Of a stretch of DNA of 64,000 nt, positions 11-53,562 are shown piece by piece. The translations under genes were made by a program, and so were the position numbers. The notes under the pieces are model-generated. The model was not told the DNA's origin. It made no database searches and was given only the letters and a program-made list of their open reading frames with translations. Each line of letters begins with the position of its first letter. Position 1 is the first letter of the stretch. The DNA comes from Candidatus Doudnabacteria bacterium (GTDB taxonomy: Bacteria; Patescibacteriota; Doudnabacteria; UBA920). The DNA is taken from positions 24,277 through 88,276 of the forward strand of contig JACRDK010000030.1 in NCBI GenBank assembly GCA_016218585.1. The letters are read 5' to 3'.

Positions 11-1105
11 TTGGTAAAAGTTTTAAAAAGCGCAATTCCTTACGTTGCGGTGTTTGTAGTCGGTTTGTTTTTGTACTATTTCTTTTTTAGCAGCGTAAAT
101 TTTTCTTCCCTTTTGAGCTTTAAAAATAATACGCCGGCAACTCCAAAAGAAACCGCGTTGCAACAGTTGGAAAAGCAGGACTTAACCGCCTATAACAAAT
201 GGATTAGCGGTTTCTACTATGACGTTTCCGACGCAAAGGTTTTAGACCCGGAAACCGACAACTCCGGCAACGGCCTTTCTAACTTTCAAAAATATCTGTT
301 AAAACTCAATCCGAAATCTTACGATACTTTAGGTTTGGGTATGGCAGATAGCCAAGCCCTGGCTATGAATATTAGCCCGGTCTCCGGCGGCCAAATAACC
401 GATGCGCAAAAAGACATTATGTCCAAGTATGTTGATATGGAAGTGGTTATGAACCGCTTGGCCTTGTCTAATATGCAGAATCAGGGACGCGTAGCCGGCG
501 CCGCGGTTGGCAACAACACCTACTATAACGGCAGCACAAGCAGCAATAGCAACATTAACAATAATAACTATAACGGCAACTATAACAATAACAGCAATAG
601 CAATAATAACGGTTATAGCATCACCCCAACATCGGGCAGCGATGACATAGAAGTGAATACTTCTGTTGCGGGACGTTTGGAAATTCCGGACTTGAAAATT
701 TCCGTGCCGATTATGTGGACCTCCGACCCAAAAAACTTTGACAAAGATTTGCAATCCGGCGTTGTCCATTATCCGGGCACAGCTATGCCGGGACAGATTG
801 GCACTACTTATATTTCCGGACACTCCAGCAATTATGTTTGGGCGAAAGGAAGTTACAATAAAATTTTCTCCACCTTAGGAGATTTAGCGGACAACACATC
901 CTTTAAGATTACCGTGGTGCATAAAAACGGCAAAGTCGCCATATTCCATTACGTTGTTACTTCCAGGAAAGAATATTCTCCGACCGATCAGGAGCAGTTT
1001 AAAAATACCGGCAAGTCTATTGTGGCTTTGTCGACCTGCTGGCCGGTTGGTTCTACCGCCAAACGCTTAGTGGTTTTTGGCACCTTAACACAAGTAGAAA
1101 AATAA
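11..1105 (+). CDS. Sortase-family transpeptidase (membrane-anchored; Asn-rich low-complexity linker); possibly 5'-partial since the frame is open to position 2
   Basis: N-terminal TM segment IPYVAVFVVGLFLYYFFF. Sortase hallmarks: conserved His in ISGHSSNYVW, catalytic Cys in the TLxTC-type motif ALSTCWP, downstream Arg (AKRLVVFGTL). Asn/Tyr-rich tract NNNNYNGNYNNNSNSNNNGY between anchor and catalytic domain. TTG start at position 11. Confidence 0.7.
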   Translation: MVKVLKSAIPYVAVFVVGLFLYYFFFSSVNFSSLLSFKNNTPATPKETALQQLEKQDLTAYNKWISGFYYDVSDAKVLDPETDNSGNGLSNFQKYLLKLNPKSYDTLGLGMADSQALAMNISPVSGGQITDAQKDIMSKYVDMEVVMNRLALSNMQNQGRVAGAAVGNNTYYNGSTSSNSNINNNNYNGNYNNNSNSNNNGYSITPTSGSDDIEVNTSVAGRLEIPDLKISVPIMWTSDPKNFDKDLQSGVVHYPGTAMPGQIGTTYISGHSSNYVWAKGSYNKIFSTLGDLADNTSFKITVVHKNGKVAIFHYVVTSRKEYSPTDQEQFKNTGKSIVALSTCWPVGSTAKRLVVFGTLTQVEK

Positions 1106-1155: not shown

Positions 1156-1306
1156 ATGAGTTGATTTAAATAATATAGAGCGGGCGCGCCCGTGTTTATA
1201 ATCTGATTGTAAAAGGGTATTGTAAACATCGCGTGCTCGGCTCTCGGCCGACACATTCGTCGGCTCAGGCCGAGAACAATACAACAAAAGAAGAGGGGAT
1301 AAGACA

Positions 1307-2668
1307 GTGAATTTTGGACAACTGATTGCGATTCTGATGACCGTTCTGCTAATCGGCGGGGCTTTTCCCGTCGCGGCGCAGAGCCAACCGGTATCCACAC
1401 AAACCGCCCAGCCCCACCCGGGTGTCCGGGTGAGCGTGGAGAAGTTTCCGCTCATTCCGCCGGTACCGGGCCAGCGGCCGATTTATACGATCGGCCAGAT
1501 CGTATTCGCCGCCGAAGAAATATACAAAAGCGGCGTCAACGGCTCGTTTGTGAAGGCTTTTGGCCAGGCCAAGAGCCACGTTGAGCAGGCACAGGCAATC
1601 ATCTCCTTTGCCTCCAAAGAGTTGCTCGCGCAGCTCGAGGAGATGAAGAAGTCACCCGAAGGGCCGTTGCCGGAACCGGAGCAATATCAAGCGCTCAAGG
1701 ACCCGAAAGTGGCTTTGGACTACGCCGCTGTCAAACAATCGTTTGTGCCTTTTTCCGAATGGGGTGAAAGTCCTTTCGGAGAGGAAGTAACGGACTGGAA
1801 AGGTCTCTGTGAGACCTATCAGGATACCATGGCCGCGATGATCCAACGCACTAACTATTCACCTGCAATGAAGGTGGAATGGGCAGACGCGTTGGCTCAT
1901 GTGTGTGCCAACGGCCTTGACGGTCGCTACTCCAAGGTGGTGGATTTGGTTGACTGGCCGCTCTGGCAATGGACTACTGGTCGTACTGTTGGGACATCTC
2001 ATTCTGGAAACAGAATACCTGGTGTCAACGTGATGTACGTCGGTGGCCATGCTTCCGCCCTCTATCTCTACCTGCCCAAGTCGGCTACGGTAGTGATGCA
2101 CGGGTTCAAGTGCAAGGGGAATCCGATTGTTCCTTTCGTCATCGGTTCATTCCAGGTGACGAAGGAGACGACGAGGATTCCTGCCTGTTTGGGGCTTAAT
2201 GGCGATTCAGGCTTTGTCCAAACGGGCAAGACTGTTCGTTTCAGCGCTCACTTTGACAACCCTGCCGGAGTGCCTTTTGACTTCCGCTTCATCCTCACGG
2301 ACAAGCGGACCAGCAAAACCAAAGTGCTTGGTGAAAACCAGCCTGAGGTGACGTTGGAGCAGAAGGAGGCCGGCGAGTACGAGGTAAGTGTAACTGGCGA
2401 ATTCGAAGGGAAGCCAATACCAGCCTTGGGCTGTGTAATGGCTATCACCTTCGTTAAGCCCATTCCGCCGCCTCCGCCGACGTTTGTCACTACCACGCCT
2501 CCGCCGACAAGGCCCGCAATCGTTCCGCCGCCGCCCAAGAAGGGTGGGCACGGATGGATCTGGGTTCTTGTAGCGGCAGGTGCTGGCGCTGGCATTGGTC
2601 TGGCACTGATGGGTGGTGGAATTCGCAAGGATCCGGCAACTGCCGCTGGCACCGGCTGGAGACCGTAA
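1307..2668 (+). CDS. Hypothetical secreted, membrane-anchored protein: signal peptide, about 380-aa unknown domain, Pro-rich stalk (PPPPPTFVTTTPPPTRPAIVPPPP) and C-terminal TM helix; encoded in a roughly 58% GC island
   Basis: Long ORF with GTG start. N-terminal hydrophobic signal LIAILMTVLLIGGAFPVAAQ. C-terminal WIWVLVAAGAGAGIGLALMGG TM segment. Base composition is markedly higher in GC than all flanking genes. The 5' leader (1160-1300) contains several GC hairpins, and a T-tract hairpin follows at about 2680-2735. Confidence 0.6.
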   Translation: MNFGQLIAILMTVLLIGGAFPVAAQSQPVSTQTAQPHPGVRVSVEKFPLIPPVPGQRPIYTIGQIVFAAEEIYKSGVNGSFVKAFGQAKSHVEQAQAIISFASKELLAQLEEMKKSPEGPLPEPEQYQALKDPKVALDYAAVKQSFVPFSEWGESPFGEEVTDWKGLCETYQDTMAAMIQRTNYSPAMKVEWADALAHVCANGLDGRYSKVVDLVDWPLWQWTTGRTVGTSHSGNRIPGVNVMYVGGHASALYLYLPKSATVVMHGFKCKGNPIVPFVIGSFQVTKETTRIPACLGLNGDSGFVQTGKTVRFSAHFDNPAGVPFDFRFILTDKRTSKTKVLGENQPEVTLEQKEAGEYEVSVTGEFEGKPIPALGCVMAITFVKPIPPPPPTFVTTTPPPTRPAIVPPPPKKGGHGWIWVLVAAGAGAGIGLALMGGGIRKDPATAAGTGWRP

Positions 2669-28733: not shown

Positions 28734-28829
28734 TAATTTTAACACTTGGTGAAAGTTATTAAGTTATCCAGCTCATCAAGTTTGTGCGTATTAACTTTAT
28801 AAACTTTATAAATTTTAAGAACTATTTTT

Positions 28830-29219
28830 ATGGCTCGTATCGCAGGAATTAACATACCAAACGAAAAACGCATCGAAGCGTCTTTGCCTTACATTTACGG
28901 AGTCGGCTTAAGCCTTTCCAAAAAAATTCTGGCCGCTGCAAAAGTTGATCCGAACAAGCGCACCAAAGATTTAAGCGAAGCAGAACTCGGACGCATTCGC
29001 GAATTTATTGAAAAGAGCTTCAAAGTCGAAGGTGAATTAAGACAGCAGGTTCTGTTAAACATCAAGCGCTTAAAAGAAATCGGCGCTTATCGCGGTATTC
29101 GCCACATTAGAGGTTTACCGGTAAGAGGACAGAGAACCAAGACCAATTCCCGCACCCGCCGCGGCAACGTTCGTAAGACCGCCGGATCCGGACGCAAGAA
29201 CGCATCGGAAAAGACCTAA
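28830..29219 (+). CDS. rpsM: 30S ribosomal protein S13
   Basis: [26 protein letters not shown]...[18 protein letters not shown]. Confidence 0.95.
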
Positions 29220-34287: not shown

Positions 34288-34650
34288 TTTTGGGGTGGTA
34301 GTTTTTATTGCGCCAAGCAAACTCATAAGCCGAATTCTGTTTTAAAATAATCATCTATCTTGTCCCGATGTTGCCATCGGGATCGAGCAGCCTACCAAAT
34401 TTGGCCTTGCACTCAAGTAAGGATTTGGCCGTTTCACTCCCGCATTGCTGCGGGAACAGTCCAGCTCTTTTTTGCAAAAGGGTTGGACTACTTAGCCTTT
34501 CGGCATCAGTCGTTTCTGTTCGCACCTCTAGGATTACTCCCGACGGGAATTACCCGCTACCATTCTTGATAACTCTATAGAGGTTATCAAATAAGTGTTC
34601 GGACTTTCCTCCCCGCCCTTTGGATTGCATTAAAGACAATTTTGAATGCG
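34288..34650 (-). ncRNA. rnpB: RNase P RNA (bacterial type), minus strand; exact ends approximate
   Basis: The reverse complement contains the universally conserved P4 strand GGGCGGGGAGGAAAGUCCGAAC, GGGAGUGAAACGGCC, GCAAGGCCAAAU...GGUAGGCUGCUCGAUCC and the 3' P4 partner ACAGAAUUCGGCUUAU, in canonical order. GC-rich relative to its surroundings. The track ORFs at 34360-34580 lie within it and are non-coding artefacts. Confidence 0.8.
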
Positions 34651-34941
34651 CTTGCGTAAGTGCCCCCACGAGCTACCATATTGCTTAAGCTTAATTTCTC
34701 TTATTAGCGCATCCTTTTTATTAGCGTACGCTTCGTAATAAACTAATTTAAACGGAGCGTAAGCTTTTGTCGCTGTTTCTTTAGAAGCATTATGTTGAGA
34801 AAATCTTGCTTTTAAATCACCGGTTTGACCGATGTAAATAAAATCAGACTTTATACTCTTAATTATGTAAACATAATGCATATGCAATCCAAAGAGCGGG
34901 GCGATTATTCGGTTTGCTTGGAGCAACCAGTATAATAGCAT
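34630..34941 (-). CDS. GIY-YIG nuclease-domain small protein
   Basis: YVYIIKSIKSDFIYIGQTGDLKARFSQHN (GIY..YIG..R..H.N core); 103 aa; its 3' end abuts or overlaps the 5' end of rnpB on the same strand. Confidence 0.7.
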   Translation of the reverse strand: MLLYWLLQANRIIAPLFGLHMHYVYIIKSIKSDFIYIGQTGDLKARFSQHNASKETATKAYAPFKLVYYEAYANKKDALIREIKLKQYGSSWGHLRKRIQNCL

Positions 34942-35016
34942 TATTTGACATTAATGTCAATATATAGTGTAATATAACCCTTTTTCTTAAGAAAAAGACG
35001 TGGTATAATAAGGAGT

Positions 35017-46162: not shown

Positions 46163-48901
46163 ATGTCATTTTTAACCAAACTTTTTACCGGAGAAACCAG
46201 TCCTTTAGAGAAGTATGCCAAAGAATTGCAGGAAGCAAACTCCTATAAAGAAGAAATTGCTGCGCTTACCCAGGATCAGATTAAGGCAGAAATTGAAAAA
46301 TTTAAGCAAGAACTTAAAAAGCTTGAGTCTGATAAAGAAGTTTTTGCTCATTTAACAAAAATTTCACCGCGGGTATTTGCAATAACCAGAGAAGCATCTA
46401 AAAGAAGCATTGGCCAATTCCATTACGACGTACAAATGGTTGGCGGCTTTGCTTTGGCCAGCAGCAAAATTGCTGAAATGAAAACCGGTGAAGGTAAAAC
46501 CCTTACCGCGACTTTGCCATTAGTGCTTTATGCCTTAGCAGGACGCGGCGCTCATTTGGTTACAGTTAACGATTATTTGGCCAGGTGGCAGGCTTCTTTA
46601 ATGGGGCCAATTTATAAGTACTTAGGCATGTCCGTAGCTTCCATTCAGCATGAAGCGTCTTTTATGTTTGACGACGGCTACCAGCCGGAAGCGGAAGAAA
46701 TAGAAAGGCTGGAAGGGGAGACGCAAGGATTGGTGCTGGACGTAAAACATATGCGCCCCATATCCAGGCGCGAAGCTTATGCCGCGGATATTACTTACGG
46801 CACGAACAACGAATTTGGTTTTGATTATTTGCGCGACAATATGGTGCAGAGCGTTCAGCAGCTGGTGCAGCGCGAATTATTTTTCTCTATTGTGGACGAA
46901 GTCGACAGTATTTTAATTGACGAGGCCAGAACCCCGTTAATTATTTCTATGCCGGACTCAGAGCCAACCAGCAAATATTATGAATTTGCTAAATTAGTTG
47001 ACCGCCTGCAGGAAGAAACAGATTACACGGTAGATGAAAAACATAAAGCCGCCTCTTTAACCGACGCCGGCATAAACAAAATTGAAGGTATTTTAAAAGT
47101 GCCTAATATTTATGACACCTCCAAGGGCGTAACCACTATTCACCACATTGAGCAGGCTTTGCGCGCCAGGACTTTGTTTAAAAAAGATCGCGACTACGTG
47201 GTTAGCGAAGGTGAAATTATTATTGTAGATGAATTTACCGGCAGATTAATGTTTGGCCGTCGTTATAGCGAAGGTTTGCACCAGGCAATAGAAGCTAAAG
47301 AAAATGTGCAAATTCAGCAGGAAAGCAAAACCTTAGCCACAATTACCTTCCAAAACTTATTCCGTTTGTATAAAAAACTTTCCGGTATGACCGGTACCGC
47401 TAAAACGGAAGAAGAGGAATTCTTTAAAATTTATCAGCTTACTGTAGAACAGATTCCAACCAATAAGCCAAATGTCAGGCAAGATTTGTCCGACGCGGTT
47501 TATAAAACGGAAACCGCCAAATTTAAAGCTATTGCCCAGGAAGTAAAGGCTCGCTACAAAAAAGGCCAGCCAGTGTTAATTGGTACAGTTAGTATTGCTA
47601 AAAATGAAATTTTGGCAGACTTCTTAAAACAGGAAGGCTTGCCCTTTGAAATTTTAAACGCCAAAAACCACGAACGTGAAGCGCATATTATTTCCCAAGC
47701 AGGACGCCCGGGGCAAATAACGCTTGCCACCAACATTGCCGGACGCGGGGTAGACATTTTGCTTGGCGGCAACCCGGTAGACCAGGAAGAGGCCGCAAAA
47801 GTCAGGGAAGCCGGCGGTTTGCATATTTTAGGAACAGAGCGCCATGAGTCGCGCCGTATAGACAACCAGTTGCGCGGACGCGCCGGACGCCAAGGCGACC
47901 CCGGAAGTTCTCAGTTCTTTGTGTCTATGGAAGACGACCTAATGAGGCTATTCGGCGGCGACCGGATGAAGAGCTTAATGAATACTTTGGGTTTGCCCGA
48001 TGACCAGCCGGTAGAAGCTAAAATGGTTTCCAGAAGCATTGAACAGGCGCAAAAGAAGATTGAAGGATTGAACTTTGATACCAGAAAACATGTTTTGGAA
48101 TTTGACGATGTTTTAAACCATCAACGCAATATAATTTATAAAAAGCGCCGCGGTTTTTTGGTTGGCACCGAAGAGAGCAAGAAGACAGATTTGAAACAGG
48201 AAATTCTAGGGATGGCCAAGGACGAACTGGTTGAAGTCGCTGAATTTAACTTAAACCAGTTAGACGAGCACGGAGGGAAAAAAGAAGACTGGGCGAATTT
48301 GTTTAAGACTGTTGGCACAATGGTGCCGGTTGATCAAAAATTGATAGATAAGGTTAAGGAAGCCGCTAAGGACGCGGCAGACAGAGAATTTGCGGTTGCC
48401 GATACCTTCTACAAAGCGGTAGAAGAAAACTGGGAAGCCAAAGAAAAAGAAATGGGCAAAGAAGTGTTTGAGGGAGCACAGAGATTTGTTGCCCTGCAAT
48501 CTTTAGACAATCTTTGGATGGAACATTTGGACACAATGGATCATTTGCGCGACAGCGTCCGCCTTCGCGGTTATGGGCAACGCGATCCGTTGGTGGAATA
48601 TAAAAAAGAAGGCTATGTAATGTTCCAGAATTTGGTAAAGGAAATGAATAAACAAATTGTTTATACCATTTTCCATATTACCGTTCAGGTAAACCAGCAG
48701 CCAAACCAGCAAAAACCGCTTAAGGATTTGGTAACCAGTTCAGCGAGTGGCTCAATGCAAACCGGCGGGCAAACAGATCCAAAATACGAAGGCGTAGGCC
48801 GCAACGACCCCTGCCCATGTGGAGCGATAAATCCTGAAACAGGCAAGCCATATAAGTTCAAGCGTTGTGGGATGATAAACGCTAGCTACCATAAAAAATA
48901 G
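46163..48901 (+). CDS. secA: Preprotein translocase ATPase SecA (start placed at MSFLTKLF; the ORF track gives an upstream ATG at 46121)
   Basis: MSFLTKLFTGE... N-terminus typical of SecA, DEAD-like motor (MKTGEGKTLTATLP, VDEVDSILIDEARTPLIIS), C-terminal Zn finger CPCGAINPETGKPYKFKRCG. Confidence 0.95.
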   Translation: MSFLTKLFTGETSPLEKYAKELQEANSYKEEIAALTQDQIKAEIEKFKQELKKLESDKEVFAHLTKISPRVFAITREASKRSIGQFHYDVQMVGGFALASSKIAEMKTGEGKTLTATLPLVLYALAGRGAHLVTVNDYLARWQASLMGPIYKYLGMSVASIQHEASFMFDDGYQPEAEEIERLEGETQGLVLDVKHMRPISRREAYAADITYGTNNEFGFDYLRDNMVQSVQQLVQRELFFSIVDEVDSILIDEARTPLIISMPDSEPTSKYYEFAKLVDRLQEETDYTVDEKHKAASLTDAGINKIEGILKVPNIYDTSKGVTTIHHIEQALRARTLFKKDRDYVVSEGEIIIVDEFTGRLMFGRRYSEGLHQAIEAKENVQIQQESKTLATITFQNLFRLYKKLSGMTGTAKTEEEEFFKIYQLTVEQIPTNKPNVRQDLSDAVYKTETAKFKAIAQEVKARYKKGQPVLIGTVSIAKNEILADFLKQEGLPFEILNAKNHEREAHIISQAGRPGQITLATNIAGRGVDILLGGNPVDQEEAAKVREAGGLHILGTERHESRRIDNQLRGRAGRQGDPGSSQFFVSMEDDLMRLFGGDRMKSLMNTLGLPDDQPVEAKMVSRSIEQAQKKIEGLNFDTRKHVLEFDDVLNHQRNIIYKKRRGFLVGTEESKKTDLKQEILGMAKDELVEVAEFNLNQLDEHGGKKEDWANLFKTVGTMVPVDQKLIDKVKEAAKDAADREFAVADTFYKAVEENWEAKEKEMGKEVFEGAQRFVALQSLDNLWMEHLDTMDHLRDSVRLRGYGQRDPLVEYKKEGYVMFQNLVKEMNKQIVYTIFHITVQVNQQPNQQKPLKDLVTSSASGSMQTGGQTDPKYEGVGRNDPCPCGAINPETGKPYKFKRCGMINASYHKK

Positions 48902-49035
48902 AGTGAAATCGGCCGGAGCTTTAGCGAAGGTGGACGGCAGCGGAAAAAAGTTTAAGAAATGCCACGGGAAGTAGGAGACAGGTAAAATGGTAAAATGAAA
49001 GAGAGGTCAGACGACTGTCCAACCTCCCCAGTTTT

Positions 49036-49215
49036 CTACCGATGTTCGGTTATGGCGACACACGTGTGTTCACCTATGAGTTTCGAGTAATACATCGCCG
49101 TTACCCGTAACTCCGCGTGTTTGCCGCAAAATTGCGACATCGCTTCGGCGAGAGTTTTACCGCTCCATCTAACTTCCCACACGCCATTACCGTAGTCCTT
49201 CTCGATATAATCCAT
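49036..49215 (-). CDS. Hypothetical 59-aa protein encoded on the minus strand inside a GC-rich cassette with a perfect sigma-70 consensus promoter
   Basis: Manual translation: MDYIEKDYGNGVWEVRWSGKTLAEAMSQFCGKHAELRVTAMYYSKLIGEHTCVAITEHR. Upstream on the minus strand: TTGACA-N17-TATAAT and SD aaaggag 7 nt before ATG. About 55% GC. Preferred over the overlapping + strand track ORF 49117-49359. Confidence 0.45.
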   Translation of the reverse strand: MDYIEKDYGNGVWEVRWSGKTLAEAMSQFCGKHAELRVTAMYYSKLIGEHTCVAITEHR

Positions 49216-49334
49216 TTCCCGCTCCTTTTAGATTTTCATATAATTATAGCATATAATTATAAATCTGTCAATATGAGGGAAAAGCCCCTTAAAAAATGGG
49301 TAAATCGTGTGTTTAAGGAAAAAATGGAAAAAAT

Positions 49335-49886
49335 ATGCAATTTAATGAAGATAAGCTAATTGAAATAGCAAAACCCTACTTTAATAGAGCCAGGGCAGGT
49401 GATTGGAATCATGCTGTTAGAGTGGTAAAATGGGTAAAAGAACTTGGAAAAGGCAGGGCAGACTTGGATACTTTGGTTACCGCCGCCTATCTTCATGATG
49501 TTGGTTGGTCGAGCGTTGCCCCCAAAGATAAGCTGAACTTAGATGAAATGTTGTTGCTGGAAAATCAGGCAAATAAAAATTCGAGTATAAAAGTAAAAGA
49601 AGTGCTAGGGCAATGTGCTTTTGCGAGCATAGATATTAATTCTGTAATTAGGCTAATTGGAGCGGCTGATAAACACTCATCTGAAAAGGAAGACGAAGCC
49701 ATTATTGTTGATGCTGATAGTTTAAGCAAATTATGCATAGAACATCTTCAAGAAAAGTATCAAAAAAACAGCTTCATAAAAGTGCTAAAACTGTGGGATG
49801 ATGAACTAAAAACCAGAGTAAAGACAGAAAAGGCCAAAGAGTTGTTTCCAAAATTGCTAATTGATTTGAAAGGTAAGTTAATTTAA
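49335..49886 (+). CDS. HD-domain metal-dependent phosphohydrolase
   Basis: NHAVRVVKWVKELGK...LVTAAYLHDVGW (H...HD motif); 183 aa. Confidence 0.8.
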   Translation: MQFNEDKLIEIAKPYFNRARAGDWNHAVRVVKWVKELGKGRADLDTLVTAAYLHDVGWSSVAPKDKLNLDEMLLLENQANKNSSIKVKEVLGQCAFASIDINSVIRLIGAADKHSSEKEDEAIIVDADSLSKLCIEHLQEKYQKNSFIKVLKLWDDELKTRVKTEKAKELFPKLLIDLKGKLI

Positions 49887-49933
49887 TATCGTATAAGCCT
49901 AATATGAAAGTTTTTTGACTTCGAGTCATAAAT

Positions 49934-50329
49934 ATGTCAAATGTAATGGAAAAAATAGGTAATGCAGACAATTTAATAAAAGAAGCTAAATCAATTATTG
50001 ATTTGAGGTATAAAAAAGGTGCGCATTCAGTGGGTGCAGCCTTAAGAACAAAATCGGGAAAGATTTACACAGGCATAAGCATAAAAGGTTTAAAGTTGGA
50101 TTTGTGCTCAGAATGGACTGCAATAGGCAGAGCATTTGTTGAAGGAGAAACGGAAATTGAATCTATCGTTGCGGTTCACAGAAAAGAAGATGGAACTTTT
50201 GAATTTTTCCCGCCTTGCGGATTATGCAGAGAGCTGTTAACTAAATATTGTCCCGATGCTTTGGTCATATTTTCAGAAAATGAATTTAAAAAAGCATCAG
50301 ACTTATTGCCGTCAGCCTGGAAAAGATAA
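49934..50329 (+). CDS. cdd: Cytidine deaminase (small tetrameric CDA-type zinc deaminase)
   Basis: CSEWTAIG (the C/H-A-E motif equivalent) and PPCGLCRELL (PCxxC zinc ligands); 131 aa. Confidence 0.75.
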   Translation: MSNVMEKIGNADNLIKEAKSIIDLRYKKGAHSVGAALRTKSGKIYTGISIKGLKLDLCSEWTAIGRAFVEGETEIESIVAVHRKEDGTFEFFPPCGLCRELLTKYCPDALVIFSENEFKKASDLLPSAWKR

Positions 50330-50331
50330 AT

Positions 50332-50979
50332 ATGAATAACATACCAGTTGAACAACTAGCAAAAAAGATATGGGAGTATCATCATCTTAATCACAAACTT
50401 TCAAAGGCAGATTGCATACTAGTTTTGGGGAGTCATGATATTAGGGTTGCTGTTCGGGCCGCAGAATTATTTTTAGAAGGGTATGCGCCATTAATGGTAT
50501 TTTCTGGAGGTTATGGACGACTAACTCAAGGTTTGTGGAATGAACCGGAAGCAATTGTTTTCTCAAAGATTGCTATTGAAATGGGGGTGCCAAAAGATCA
50601 AATAATTATTGAGGATAAATCTACAAACACGGGAGAGAATATAGTATTTACAAAAAAGTTGTTAGAAGAGAAAGGCATAAATCCCAAAACAATCATCTTG
50701 GTTCAAAAGCCGTATATGGAGCGAAGAGCTTACGCAACGTTTAAGAAATTTTGGCCGGAAAAAGATTGCATTGCAACTTCCCAGCAAGTTTCGTTTGATG
50801 ATTATCCGACAAAAGATATTAGTAAGGATGATTTAATTAGCATTTTGGTTGGCGATTTACAGCGAATCAAAACGTATCCGGAAAAAGGTTTTCAAATTCA
50901 TCAGGAAATTCCGGATGACGTATGGAGTGCATATGAACTATTAGTTAAAGCAGGTTACAATAAATACTTAACAAATTAA
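50332..50979 (+). CDS. DUF218 / YdcF-SanA family protein
   Basis: CILVLGSHDIRVAVRAAELFLEGYAPLMVFSGGYG... matches the YdcF-like Rossmann fold family. Confidence 0.7.
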   Translation: MNNIPVEQLAKKIWEYHHLNHKLSKADCILVLGSHDIRVAVRAAELFLEGYAPLMVFSGGYGRLTQGLWNEPEAIVFSKIAIEMGVPKDQIIIEDKSTNTGENIVFTKKLLEEKGINPKTIILVQKPYMERRAYATFKKFWPEKDCIATSQQVSFDDYPTKDISKDDLISILVGDLQRIKTYPEKGFQIHQEIPDDVWSAYELLVKAGYNKYLTN

Positions 50980-51411: not shown

Positions 51412-51840
51412 ATGGAGCAAGGAAATCAGCAAAGACCAATAGTCGGTATAGGCGTGATGCTTTTTAAAGATGGAAAAATTTTATTGGGTAAAAGAAAGGG
51501 TCATGTTGGTTTTGGCACGTATGGCTGGCCAGGTGGCAAGCAAGAGTTTAAGGAATCTTTTGCAGCTTGTGCCAAGCGAGAGGTTATGGAAGAAGCCGGA
51601 ATCGAAATTAGCGATATAAAATTTTTAAGGCTGATGAACTACATTTCTGAAAACGGAACTCATTTTTGCGATATTCAATTAACTGCTCAATGGTTTTCCG
51701 GAGAGCCTAAAACATTAGAATCAGACAAATGCGAAGGCTGGCAATGGTATAATATAAATAATTTACCCGAGCCGATGTTTGAACCGACGATAACCGCCAT
51801 CGAAGCGTATAAAACAGGAAAAAACTTTTTTGACAACTAA
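51412..51840 (+). CDS. NUDIX hydrolase
   Basis: Nudix box GWPGGKQEFKESFAACAKREVMEEAGIEI (Gx5Ex7REUxEExGU). Confidence 0.85.
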   Translation: MEQGNQQRPIVGIGVMLFKDGKILLGKRKGHVGFGTYGWPGGKQEFKESFAACAKREVMEEAGIEISDIKFLRLMNYISENGTHFCDIQLTAQWFSGEPKTLESDKCEGWQWYNINNLPEPMFEPTITAIEAYKTGKNFFDN

Positions 51841-51842
51841 TT

Positions 51843-52421
51843 ATGAAATACATAATTTTTTCAGGGACAACAGGCTCGGGAAAAGATACTATAATTAACA
51901 GGTTGCATGAAGATTTAAAAAACCTTCAAATTGAGCCAGTTAAAAGAGCTTGGTATTATACAACAAGAAAGGTTGACCGAAAGGGTGAAAACCCTAATAG
52001 GAAAGACAAAATTAGCGATGAGGAATTCAATGAAAAAGTATCAAAGGGTGAAATTATTTTAGATCATAAAAATTCAAATTATCAAGTTGGTTATCCGTCA
52101 GAAATTCTAAACGAAAAGTCAGGAATTATTATATTTAATATAGCTGTGTGGGCGGCAAAGCAACTTCAGGATTATGCTTTACAAAATGATGGACGTGCCG
52201 TAACTATTTTTTTAGATGCTCCTAAGGAACAGCGGATTGGTAGAATTAAACATCGGGATGGGTTGAGCGCTGACGAGTCCGTGATTTTTAAGGTTGAAAA
52301 CGATATAACAAAATCTGAACATGCAACAGGATATAATTTAGTAGTTCAAAATAAAGATGGCGATTTGGAAAAAAATTACGAGATTATTTTAAGTAAGGTT
52401 AAAGAATTTTTAAATGCTTAA
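51843..52421 (+). CDS. Guanylate-kinase-like P-loop nucleoside monophosphate kinase (paralog 1)
   Basis: P-loop FSGTTGSGKDT; YTTRKVDRKGENPNRKDKISDEEFNEKVSKGEIILDH...NYQVGYP parallels the guanylate kinase TTR.pR.gE..G.dY.F.s.eeF...GeflE.a...gn.YGT region. Confidence 0.65.
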   Translation: MKYIIFSGTTGSGKDTIINRLHEDLKNLQIEPVKRAWYYTTRKVDRKGENPNRKDKISDEEFNEKVSKGEIILDHKNSNYQVGYPSEILNEKSGIIIFNIAVWAAKQLQDYALQNDGRAVTIFLDAPKEQRIGRIKHRDGLSADESVIFKVENDITKSEHATGYNLVVQNKDGDLEKNYEIILSKVKEFLNA

Positions 52422-52959
52422 ATTTATTACCGGAAATAAAACAAAGTTTAATGAGGTGCAAGCGGCTCTCGCGCCTATTAAGGTTGAACAAATTAATATA
52501 GATTTACACGAAATTCAAGAAGTTGATCCTAAAAAGATAATTGAACACAAGCTAAAAGAAGCCTTTAATCATTATAAGGGCGAATTTATTATAGATGACA
52601 GCTCTTTATTTTTAAGCTGTTTTAATTACAAGCTTCCCGGCCCGTTGATAAAATGGTTTAATGATTCTATTGGCACAAAAAAGATTTATGAAATGTGCAA
52701 AAAAATGGGTGACCAAAAAGCCAGAGCCACAACCTTTATTGGGTACGCAAAAAGTCCTAAAGAAATTGAATTTTTTGAAGGAACGATGAATGGCAAAATT
52801 ATAAAACCAAAAGGTAAATATAATTTTGGCTACGACCCGATTTTTGTGCCAAACGGCAAAAAAGAAACCCTCTCGCAAATGAAAGCGTCTGGAAATTTTT
52901 TTAGTAGCCCCCGCGGGTTAGCGGTATTAAAGTTGAAAAAATATTTAAGTGTTAAATAG
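52414..52959 (+). CDS. rdgB: Ham1/RdgB-family non-canonical purine NTP pyrophosphatase (ITPase)
   Basis: FGYDPIFVPNGKKETLSQMKASGNFFSSPRGLAVLKL matches the ITPase C-terminal signature (FGYDP.F.P.G...T.AEM....K...SHRG.A); N-terminal ITGNKTKF. Confidence 0.8.
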   Translation: MLKFITGNKTKFNEVQAALAPIKVEQINIDLHEIQEVDPKKIIEHKLKEAFNHYKGEFIIDDSSLFLSCFNYKLPGPLIKWFNDSIGTKKIYEMCKKMGDQKARATTFIGYAKSPKEIEFFEGTMNGKIIKPKGKYNFGYDPIFVPNGKKETLSQMKASGNFFSSPRGLAVLKLKKYLSVK

Positions 52960-52962
52960 AAT

Positions 52963-53562
52963 ATGAAGATTATTATTATTTGTGGTCCTACAGCCTCGGG
53001 CAAAGATTCTGTAATAGATGAAATGTATAGGGAACTAAATCAAGAGTATCCTGGAAAAGTATCACAGGCAACTTACTTTAAAACAAGGGCTGCCAGACCA
53101 CAGGAGAAAATAGACAAATATTTTATTTCTGAAGAAGAGTTTGAGAAAAAAAGAGGTTCAGGGGAAATTCCAGATGAATTTTGGGGAGAGGTAAGTAATT
53201 ATCGCGTGGGGTATTCAATTAATGAGTTTACAAAATCAGAAATTGTTTTAGTAAATATTGATGACAAAAAAGCTAGAAATTTAAAAGAAGTTGCCCAACA
53301 AAGCAACAACGAAGTTCTTTCTATATTTTTACATGCCCCGGAGGAAGTAAGAAAACAAAGATTTATGTCCCGTGAAGGATGGCTAATTTACGAACCTGCT
53401 GAATATAGGTTAAGTCATGATGTCACAGACCCTAATCCTGAAAATCACAAAGATTTTGATCTGATTGTGGAAAATAAAGAAGGTGCGTTGGCGGAAACAA
53501 TGAAGGAAATTATGCCCGCGGTAAAAGAGTTTGTTGAATCAAATAAAACAATTAAAAATTGA
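52963..53562 (+). CDS. Guanylate-kinase-like P-loop nucleoside monophosphate kinase (paralog 2)
   Basis: P-loop CGPTASGKDS; FKTRAARPQEKIDKYFISEEEFEKKRGSGEIPDEFWGEVSNYRVGYS; divergent paralog of 51843-52421. Confidence 0.65.
   Translation: MKIIIICGPTASGKDSVIDEMYRELNQEYPGKVSQATYFKTRAARPQEKIDKYFISEEEFEKKRGSGEIPDEFWGEVSNYRVGYSINEFTKSEIVLVNIDDKKARNLKEVAQQSNNEVLSIFLHAPEEVRKQRFMSREGWLIYEPAEYRLSHDVTDPNPENHKDFDLIVENKEGALAETMKEIMPAVKEFVESNKTIKN

Follow-up and report, generated by a model that had tools for sequence, protein, structure and literature searches.

GyrI-like domains are duplicated SHS2 modules that bind a small molecule or a peptide in the cleft between two helices (PMC12744356). Both modules are carried on one chain of ~150 amino acids (aa) and form a pseudo-symmetric ligand cleft, and the GyrI-like/SHS2 folds include immunity proteins (PMC12744356). 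We compare here with these domains a 59-aa protein encoded on the minus strand, downstream of secA, in a stretch of 64,000 nucleotides (nt) from a Candidatus Doudnabacteria bacterium (contig JACRDK010000030.1, positions 24,277 to 88,276; this whole stretch is hereafter called the window, and coordinates are its own unless another locus is named). The protein also resembles the lineage-specific "hypothetical" proteins of the Candidate Phyla Radiation (CPR)/Patescibacteria in its short open reading frame (ORF), in belonging to no Pfam family and in its restriction to a few uncultured lineages. Unlike most such ORFs, it is backed by orthologs, by selection, by a conserved promoter and terminator and by a confident predicted fold. 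We propose, with a probability of about 0.6, that it is the product of a real gene of a tiny CPR-type family and that it would act as a binding module through an exposed face of its beta-sheet.

The minus-strand frame of 59 codons is very probably a genuine gene. It was found at 49036-49215 with exactly the translation quoted in a first-pass annotation of the window, and its homologs are conserved in that frame. Compared with the ortholog at locus L082 (protein P0002), 33 of the 54 nucleotide differences fall in third codon positions and pN is 0.18 for a pS of 0.78 (saturated); purifying selection clearly acts on the amino-acid sequence. The only non-coding segments that can be aligned between the two loci are the promoter with the 5' untranslated region (88% identical over 50 nt, or 51/63 when the ATG is included) and the 3' arm of the terminator with its T-run (18/18 identical). 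Since synonymous sites are saturated and these two segments alone remain alignable, both are therefore under selection.

That the overlapping plus-strand ORF of 80 aa is the real gene, and the 59-aa frame its shadow, is scarcely credible. The plus-strand ORF does exist and almost all genes of the window lie on its strand, but it begins with a GTG lacking a ribosome-binding site, extends across the AT-rich promoter region as far as the beginning of the HD-domain gene and has an identical twin contig as its sole tblastn match, with no homolog beyond it. The substitution pattern against the ortholog suits the minus-strand frame, and it is in the minus-strand sense that all homologs were called and are conserved. 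The plus-strand ORF, whose frame is broken by a further stop in the L082 ortholog, is a shadow and not a gene, as the first-pass annotation had suspected.

The small gene has the organisation of an independent transcription unit (Table 1): -35 and -10 hexamers spaced by 17 nt, a Shine-Dalgarno sequence 6 nt from the start (5-9 nt being expected), and a GC-rich hairpin followed by a T-run, all three elements (promoter, Shine-Dalgarno and terminator) being conserved in the L082 ortholog. As a promoter, a ribosome-binding site and a terminator surround one ORF, the segment can be read as a complete monocistronic unit, driven by a sigma-70 promoter with an extended -10. The consensus promoter reported in the first-pass annotation holds up: it scores 12/12 in a consensus scan and is one of only two perfect TTGACA-N17-TATAAT sites in the 64 kb, where sites with at most one mismatch number six for 0.47 expected from shuffles. 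The terminator, which that annotation had missed, stands right after the stop codon of the small gene. Its hairpin (49029..49000) begins six nt past the stop, the T-run reaches 48991, and the folding energy is -27.3 kcal/mol (z = -4.96 against shuffles). On the plus strand the same region folds far more weakly (-10.2 kcal/mol), because the hairpin has four G-U pairs; it terminates the small gene and not secA. Rfam gave no match at the locus, whether by E-value threshold on 48000-50500 or by gathering thresholds over the whole window. The promoter also holds a 12-nt perfect direct repeat, TATAATTATATG-c-TATAATTATATG (49261..49250 and 49248..49237, minus strand), whose second copy supplies the -10 element and of which the L082 ortholog keeps an imperfect version; this repeat could be an operator or an alternative -10.

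A strong promoter pointing at secA might also be taken to work at the level of RNA or transcription (by interference, as antisense or as a terminator for the secA 3' end), the peptide being incidental. Convergence with secA is kept in the window, in L082-L087 and in L088, the promoter and the terminator are better conserved than the synonymous sites of the ORF, and secA has no convincing plus-strand terminator of its own. We nevertheless hold this explanation to be highly improbable: selection acts on the amino-acid sequence, the family can be recognised at 40% identity in contexts without secA, the structural model folds with a predicted local distance difference test score (pLDDT) of 95, the terminator ends the small transcript before secA, and there is no Rfam match.

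The sequence searches point to a very rare, unnamed and lineage-restricted family of small proteins. A word-indexed protein search with the single sequence retrieved only an identical twin on a Logan contig. Exhaustive phmmer searching of 1.8 billion representatives gave three true small homologs, P0002 (59 aa, 68% identity, E = 1e-19), P0007 and P0008 (both 64 aa, ~40-45% identity), and the profile searches contributed P0010 (62 aa, in fact 72 aa) and P0011 (80 aa); a second profile iteration brought in no more family members and the search had converged. The family, including the window protein, consists of six clusters of 59-80 aa, none of them named and described only as "hypothetical protein" where annotated at all, and the five relatives were the only ones among ~5.8 billion protein clusters. 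Members come only from a small number of metagenomic contigs of uncultured, ultra-small bacteria, several of them clearly of Doudnabacteria/CPR type, and a metagenome scan with the family alignment recovered only L094, a P0007-type member. They share the motifs NGVW, F-x-x-x-H-x-[ED]-L-R-[VI]-T-A-[MI] and [VI]-T-E, and twelve residues are invariant (N10, G11, V12, W13, F29, H33, L36, R37, T39, A40, T56 and E57).

Other candidates were rejected. The larger phmmer hits (P0003-P0006 and P0009) are repeat proteins and were set aside as spurious. On viral contigs there was one match (L093), antisense in a capsid-like gene and preceded by a stop; all that it has in common with the family is the stretch HAELRITAI, and the NGVW motif is missing. 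Weak database matches were of no more use: at E up to 10 four of the six members are without any Pfam match, and the window protein has none at E up to 1; P0008 has one unrelated weak Pfam match (ZoocinA_TRD, E = 0.16), and the PHROGs matches are non-significant and to unnamed families only (E = 0.098 and 0.16).

The AlphaFold2 model, computed from the six-sequence alignment, has a mean pLDDT of 95.3 and a predicted template modelling score (pTM) of 0.79, with one helix (residues 22-32) and four strands (3-7, 12-17, 36-46 and 49-58). It predicts a sandwich of two layers in beta-beta-alpha-beta-beta order, in which the helix lies on a four-stranded antiparallel sheet. The protein is soluble, without signal peptide or membrane segment; it is of mixed charge (8 acidic and 7 basic residues) and forms a globular alpha/beta domain in the model.

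The protein shares a strand-helix-strand-strand module with the SHS2/GyrI-like group (SbmC/GyrI, Rob, the effector domains of BmrR/EcmrR, CtaZ, SOUL/p22HBP and DUF5085), and fold comparison matched it to EcmrR (6.5), the integron cassette protein 3gk6 (6.1), BT_1116 (6.1), CtaZ (6.0), SbmC (5.3), Rob (5.3), STM3175 (5.2) and SOUL/p22HBP (5.0-5.2). It differs from this group in lacking the duplicated architecture, since it is a single SHS2 module with an extra N-terminal strand. Furthermore, no sequence or profile similarity to GyrI-like domains was detected (Pfam with all six members; PDB profile search, E up to 10), and no Foldseek match is significant. ACT and ACT-like domains, which are small ligand-binding, dimerising modules, gave the best Foldseek probabilities (0.95-0.98, with a TM-score of 0.55-0.62 relative to the query but E > 0.1, which is not significant); they are, however, beta-alpha-beta-beta-alpha-beta with two helices, whereas the 59-aa protein is beta-beta-alpha-beta-beta with one.

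The trigger-factor N-domain (6.7) was also among the fold matches, together with the ribosomal proteins uL23, eS24 and bS6. An accessory protein associated with the ribosome or the translocon and working with SecA is an explanation to be weighed, its evidence consisting only of these low-Z fold matches and of the neighbourhood. We consider it improbable. Sequence identity between the 59-aa protein and these four folds is 2-11%, the trigger-factor signature motif is missing from what is a standalone chain, and no ribosomal context is conserved.

According to the reading that we prefer, the protein would probably be made constitutively and abundantly, because a near-consensus promoter precedes every member with readable upstream sequence (TTGACA-N17-TGgTACATT in L088; TTGACG-N18-TATAAT, with TG ahead of the -10, in L094; TTGACT-N17-TAAATT in L092); most other family members also have their own terminator, and strong promoters and terminators were seen in L088, L091, L092 and L094. 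It would be a small putative binding module that buries its exposed sheet face. By strand periodicity, the side of the sheet that the helix leaves free would carry R37 and T39 (invariant) and M41 (conserved) on strand 3 and, on strand 4, the hydrophobic positions 52 and 54 and the invariant T56; the invariant H33, N10 and E57 are near it; this open face is conserved and partly hydrophobic, and therefore suggests an interface. The most economical version of the mechanism predicts a homodimer that recreates the GyrI-like (double SHS2) cleft for a small molecule or a peptide; alternatively, the face might dock on a protein or RNA partner. Taken by itself, this binding mechanism is tentative and rather doubtful. 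More speculative, and unlikely in our estimation, is a fuller version in which a CPR-specific family of free-standing single SHS2 modules would form homodimers (heterodimers where the genes are in tandem, as in L088) with a GyrI-like cleft, serving as an abundant cytoplasmic sponge or immunity factor that keeps a small molecule, a toxic peptide or a client (the C-terminal tail of SecA, for example) sequestered; the family would then be an unfused, "pre-duplication" form of the GyrI-like proteins.

Several results weigh against the binding-module reading. Pfam, NCBIfam, PHROGs and PADLOC searches with all family members, and PDB searches by sequence and by profile, assigned no known family (as the first-pass annotation had anticipated for the window protein), and Foldseek against the PDB and BFVD returned nothing better than E = 0.06. 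That the conserved residues of the sheet are exposed is deduced from strand periodicity only. The contexts outside Doudnabacteria (ftsK, acpP, brnTA) differ from one another and give no functional hint. Finally, the 80 SecA-anchored loci that we retrieved from GTDB species representatives by means of SecA (best SecA identity 84%) contained no homolog of the small ORF at tblastn E < 1, including the locus with the 84% identical SecA. By these SecA comparisons the window falls in Candidatus Doudnabacteria (Patescibacteria/CPR); absence from all 80 related loci means that the gene is dispensable.

The genomic surroundings bear on how the gene came to lie where it does. The P0002 gene occurs on 12 contigs and, in all six of the places listed, it directly follows secA in convergent orientation (L082-L087, with 52 nt between it and the secA stop). 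SecA of L082 is 71% identical to that of the window, and the small proteins 68%. In L088, the P0008 gene is near secA on the opposite strand. Adjacency to secA in three Doudnabacteria lineages is best read as an inherited position in a variable region and is no proof of a functional link. The closest relatives have the order secA, a 99-aa gene, a Ham1-type gene and aminopeptidase N (pepN), whereas the window has ~2.1 kb extra right after secA (the small ORF and the HD-domain, cytidine-deaminase-like and DUF218 genes) and, farther downstream, two guanylate-kinase-like genes and a NUDIX gene. Gene gain and loss have a hot spot in the secA-pepN interval. Outside Doudnabacteria, the family genes are found in chromosomal housekeeping regions: upstream of ftsK-rodZ-recA (L089/L098); after rplJL, with a peptidase C14 gene on one side and acpP on the other (L094-L097); and after a BrnT/BrnA-like pair (L092), where the 80-aa member follows a CopG/BrnA antitoxin gene and a fragment resembling BrnT (positions 87-350 of L092). 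There is no integrase, transposase or phage gene near family members at the loci inspected.

The variability of this region is also what a rival explanation starts from, namely that a small mobile or accessory cassette entered after secA and carries the gene as a lone toxin, antitoxin, immunity or anti-defence factor. Indeed, the closest relatives lack the ~2.1 kb, the gene is patchily distributed among relatives, GC content at third codon positions (GC3) is two standard deviations above the window mean, one member adjoins a BrnT/BrnA-type pair and another is preceded in its operon by a 73-aa ORF, immunity proteins exist among GyrI-like/SHS2 folds, and the twin Logan contig breaks off 24 nt upstream of the -35 hexamer. 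We judge it distinctly unlikely all the same. Promoter and terminator enclose a single ORF and there is no partner gene, either here or in the ortholog; PADLOC, PHROGs and the toxin/antitoxin families of Pfam gave no match; neither integrase, transposase nor flanking repeats accompany the gene; the only viral-contig match is spurious; and other members lie amid core genes (rplJL-acpP and ftsK-recA). In addition, a secA-adjacent position held at 71% SecA identity and 68% identity of the small protein speaks for vertical descent with losses.

The same evidence bears on known toxin systems. A type II toxin-antitoxin system has two adjacent, co-transcribed small genes, whereas a single ORF was found here and in the L082 ortholog, and homology to toxins, antitoxins or defence proteins was absent from Pfam, NCBIfam, PADLOC and PHROGs. 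The protein is not the short hydrophobic membrane peptide of a type I toxin, being of mixed charge and globular in the model. The toxin-antitoxin-like pair envisaged in the first-pass annotation therefore finds no counterpart, the gene being monocistronic at both loci, with neighbours that differ between them.

The ORF had been described as lying in a GC-rich block of about 55% GC; measured GC is 49.4%. With a GC3 of 58% (window genes average 41% GC and a GC3 of 41.7 +/- 8.1) the ORF is indeed rich, but three other window genes exceed it in GC, and the description was overstated. The block is in part a relic of an older secA 3' end. A foreign origin deduced from GC was rejected, as GC3 values of other window genes extend this far and the position of the ortholog points to vertical descent.

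The relic encodes GSGKKFKKCHGK followed by a stop, the canonical SEC-C zinc-finger tail that is the real SecA C-terminus in L003, L004, L006, L008 and L010. Over 32-36 nt it matches the genuine secA 3' ends of L013, L008, L006 and L004 at 89-94% identity. The functional SecA of the window ends with a tail of the alternative type (CPCGAINPETGKPYKFKRCGMINASYHKK and a stop), common to L002, L014, L043 and L049; by eye, L049 and L002 have the same layout, with the alternative tail, a hairpin and a decayed canonical tail in succession. Past the relic stop, the sequence is collinear with that past the real secA stop in L082 and runs into the terminator of the small gene, so the small gene was once ~25 nt from the secA stop, nearly as it still is in L082. 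This arrangement suggests that a ~110-nt segment with the new tail (48824-48935, followed by the relic at 48936-48974) later entered the SEC-C coding region by insertion or recombination. The hairpin between the two tails has the same motif in L011, L058, L062 and L082-L087, and after secA in L049. Its consensus, ~CTTGTCCGCCGnAGCTTTAGCGAAGGnGGA, is intergenic in several Doudnabacteria/CPR contigs, and it may be a REP-like (repetitive extragenic palindromic) element.

Table 1. Features at and around the small gene (window coordinates unless a locus is named)
Feature	Position	Strand	Basis or remark
Gap holding the small gene	secA stop codon 48899-48901 to HD-domain gene start 49335	+ (secA stop)	
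-35 hexamer TTGACA	49266..49271 (read 49271..49266)	-	consensus scan; identical in L082 ortholog
Extended -10 TGcTATAAT	49243..49251 (TATAAT core 49248..49243)	-	17-nt spacer to -35; inside direct repeat of TATAATTATATG
Shine-Dalgarno AAGGAG	49222..49227	-	6 nt ahead of ATG; read from sequence; kept in L082
Coding sequence of the 59-aa protein MDYIEKDYGNGVWEVRWSGKTLAEAMSQFCGKHAELRVTAMYYSKLIGEHTCVAITEHR, including stop codon	49036..49215	-	ORF list, homologs, purifying selection, AlphaFold model
Intrinsic terminator, 13-bp hairpin (four G-U pairs), then UUUCAUUUUA	48991..49029	-	fold energy; conservation in L082
Overlapping ORF, 80 codons, shadow frame and not a gene	49117..49359	+	homolog search; extra stop in L082
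Relic of older secA 3' end, encoding GSGKKFKKCHGK and a stop	48936..48974	+	39 nt; past present secA stop; not part of small gene
Short interspersed hairpin repeat (..CCGGAGCTTTAGCGAAGGTGGAC)	48909..48935	.	between present secA stop and relic tail
Hairpin repeat copy, L011	9474-9496		
Hairpin repeat copy, L058	1177-1195		
Hairpin repeat copy, L062	11686-11702		
Hairpin repeat copy, L082	6676-6687		
Hairpin repeat copy, L092	~450-480		

Further observations concern family loci and neighbouring genes. In L088, a 73-aa ORF (1182-1403, plus strand) is directly upstream of P0008, apparently in the same operon, and is preceded by a promoter TTGACA-N17-TACATT. Its LQEFLEKNPKAWVSAIAS can be set against MSQFCGKHAELRVTAMYY of the helix/strand-3 region of the family (hhalign probability 15%, 24 columns), and it may be a divergent tandem paralog. 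In L092 (858-913), the stop of the family gene overlaps the start of the next ORF (ATGCGTAA), which begins MRKLLVWFRVFRLMW before the contig ends. L001, which corresponds to window 46816-49295, is the only other public contig with the exact gene (100% identical; SRR12113407), while the ortholog occurs in JGI samples 33000453xx. L001 stops where the HD-gene block joins, 24 nt upstream of the -35 hexamer, which could reflect strain-level variation at the junction or a plain assembly break.

The accessory block with the HD-domain, cytidine-deaminase-like and DUF218 genes (49335-50979 and 51412-53562) is AT-rich, with a GC3 of 0.28-0.32, and is missing after secA in the closest relatives; the sole relative of the HD gene among the fetched loci (61% identity) is right after secA in a distant genome, L081. 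The NUDIX gene and the two paralogous guanylate-kinase-like genes flank the Ham1 gene, and the secA-pepN interval is rich in nucleotide-metabolism and house-cleaning genes. Nearly all window genes are on the plus strand. Where the first-pass annotation had counted three minus-strand features, one besides the small gene was confirmed, encoding a 103-aa protein with a GIY-YIG nuclease domain (34630-34941), and ARAGORN found no tRNA gene in the whole 64 kb. The promoter region of the GIY-YIG gene (34932-34973) has two overlapping, divergent near-consensus promoters on a palindrome, TTGACATTAATGTCAA. The only Rfam match in the window at gathering score is the ribosome-binding-site leader of the alpha operon (28754-28862, plus strand, 40.3 bits).

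The small gene does not overturn current knowledge. Small ORFs of CPR organisms usually go without annotation or are dismissed; this one can confidently be annotated, as a clean example of a lineage-restricted small protein whose gene has the organisation of an ordinary gene. To judge by its consensus promoter, the gene may well be highly expressed, in an organism whose genome is minimal, and the protein is thus a reasonable candidate for structural and interaction studies. If the half-GyrI-like reading is true, the family would illustrate a route from single modules that dimerise to duplicated ligand-binding domains.
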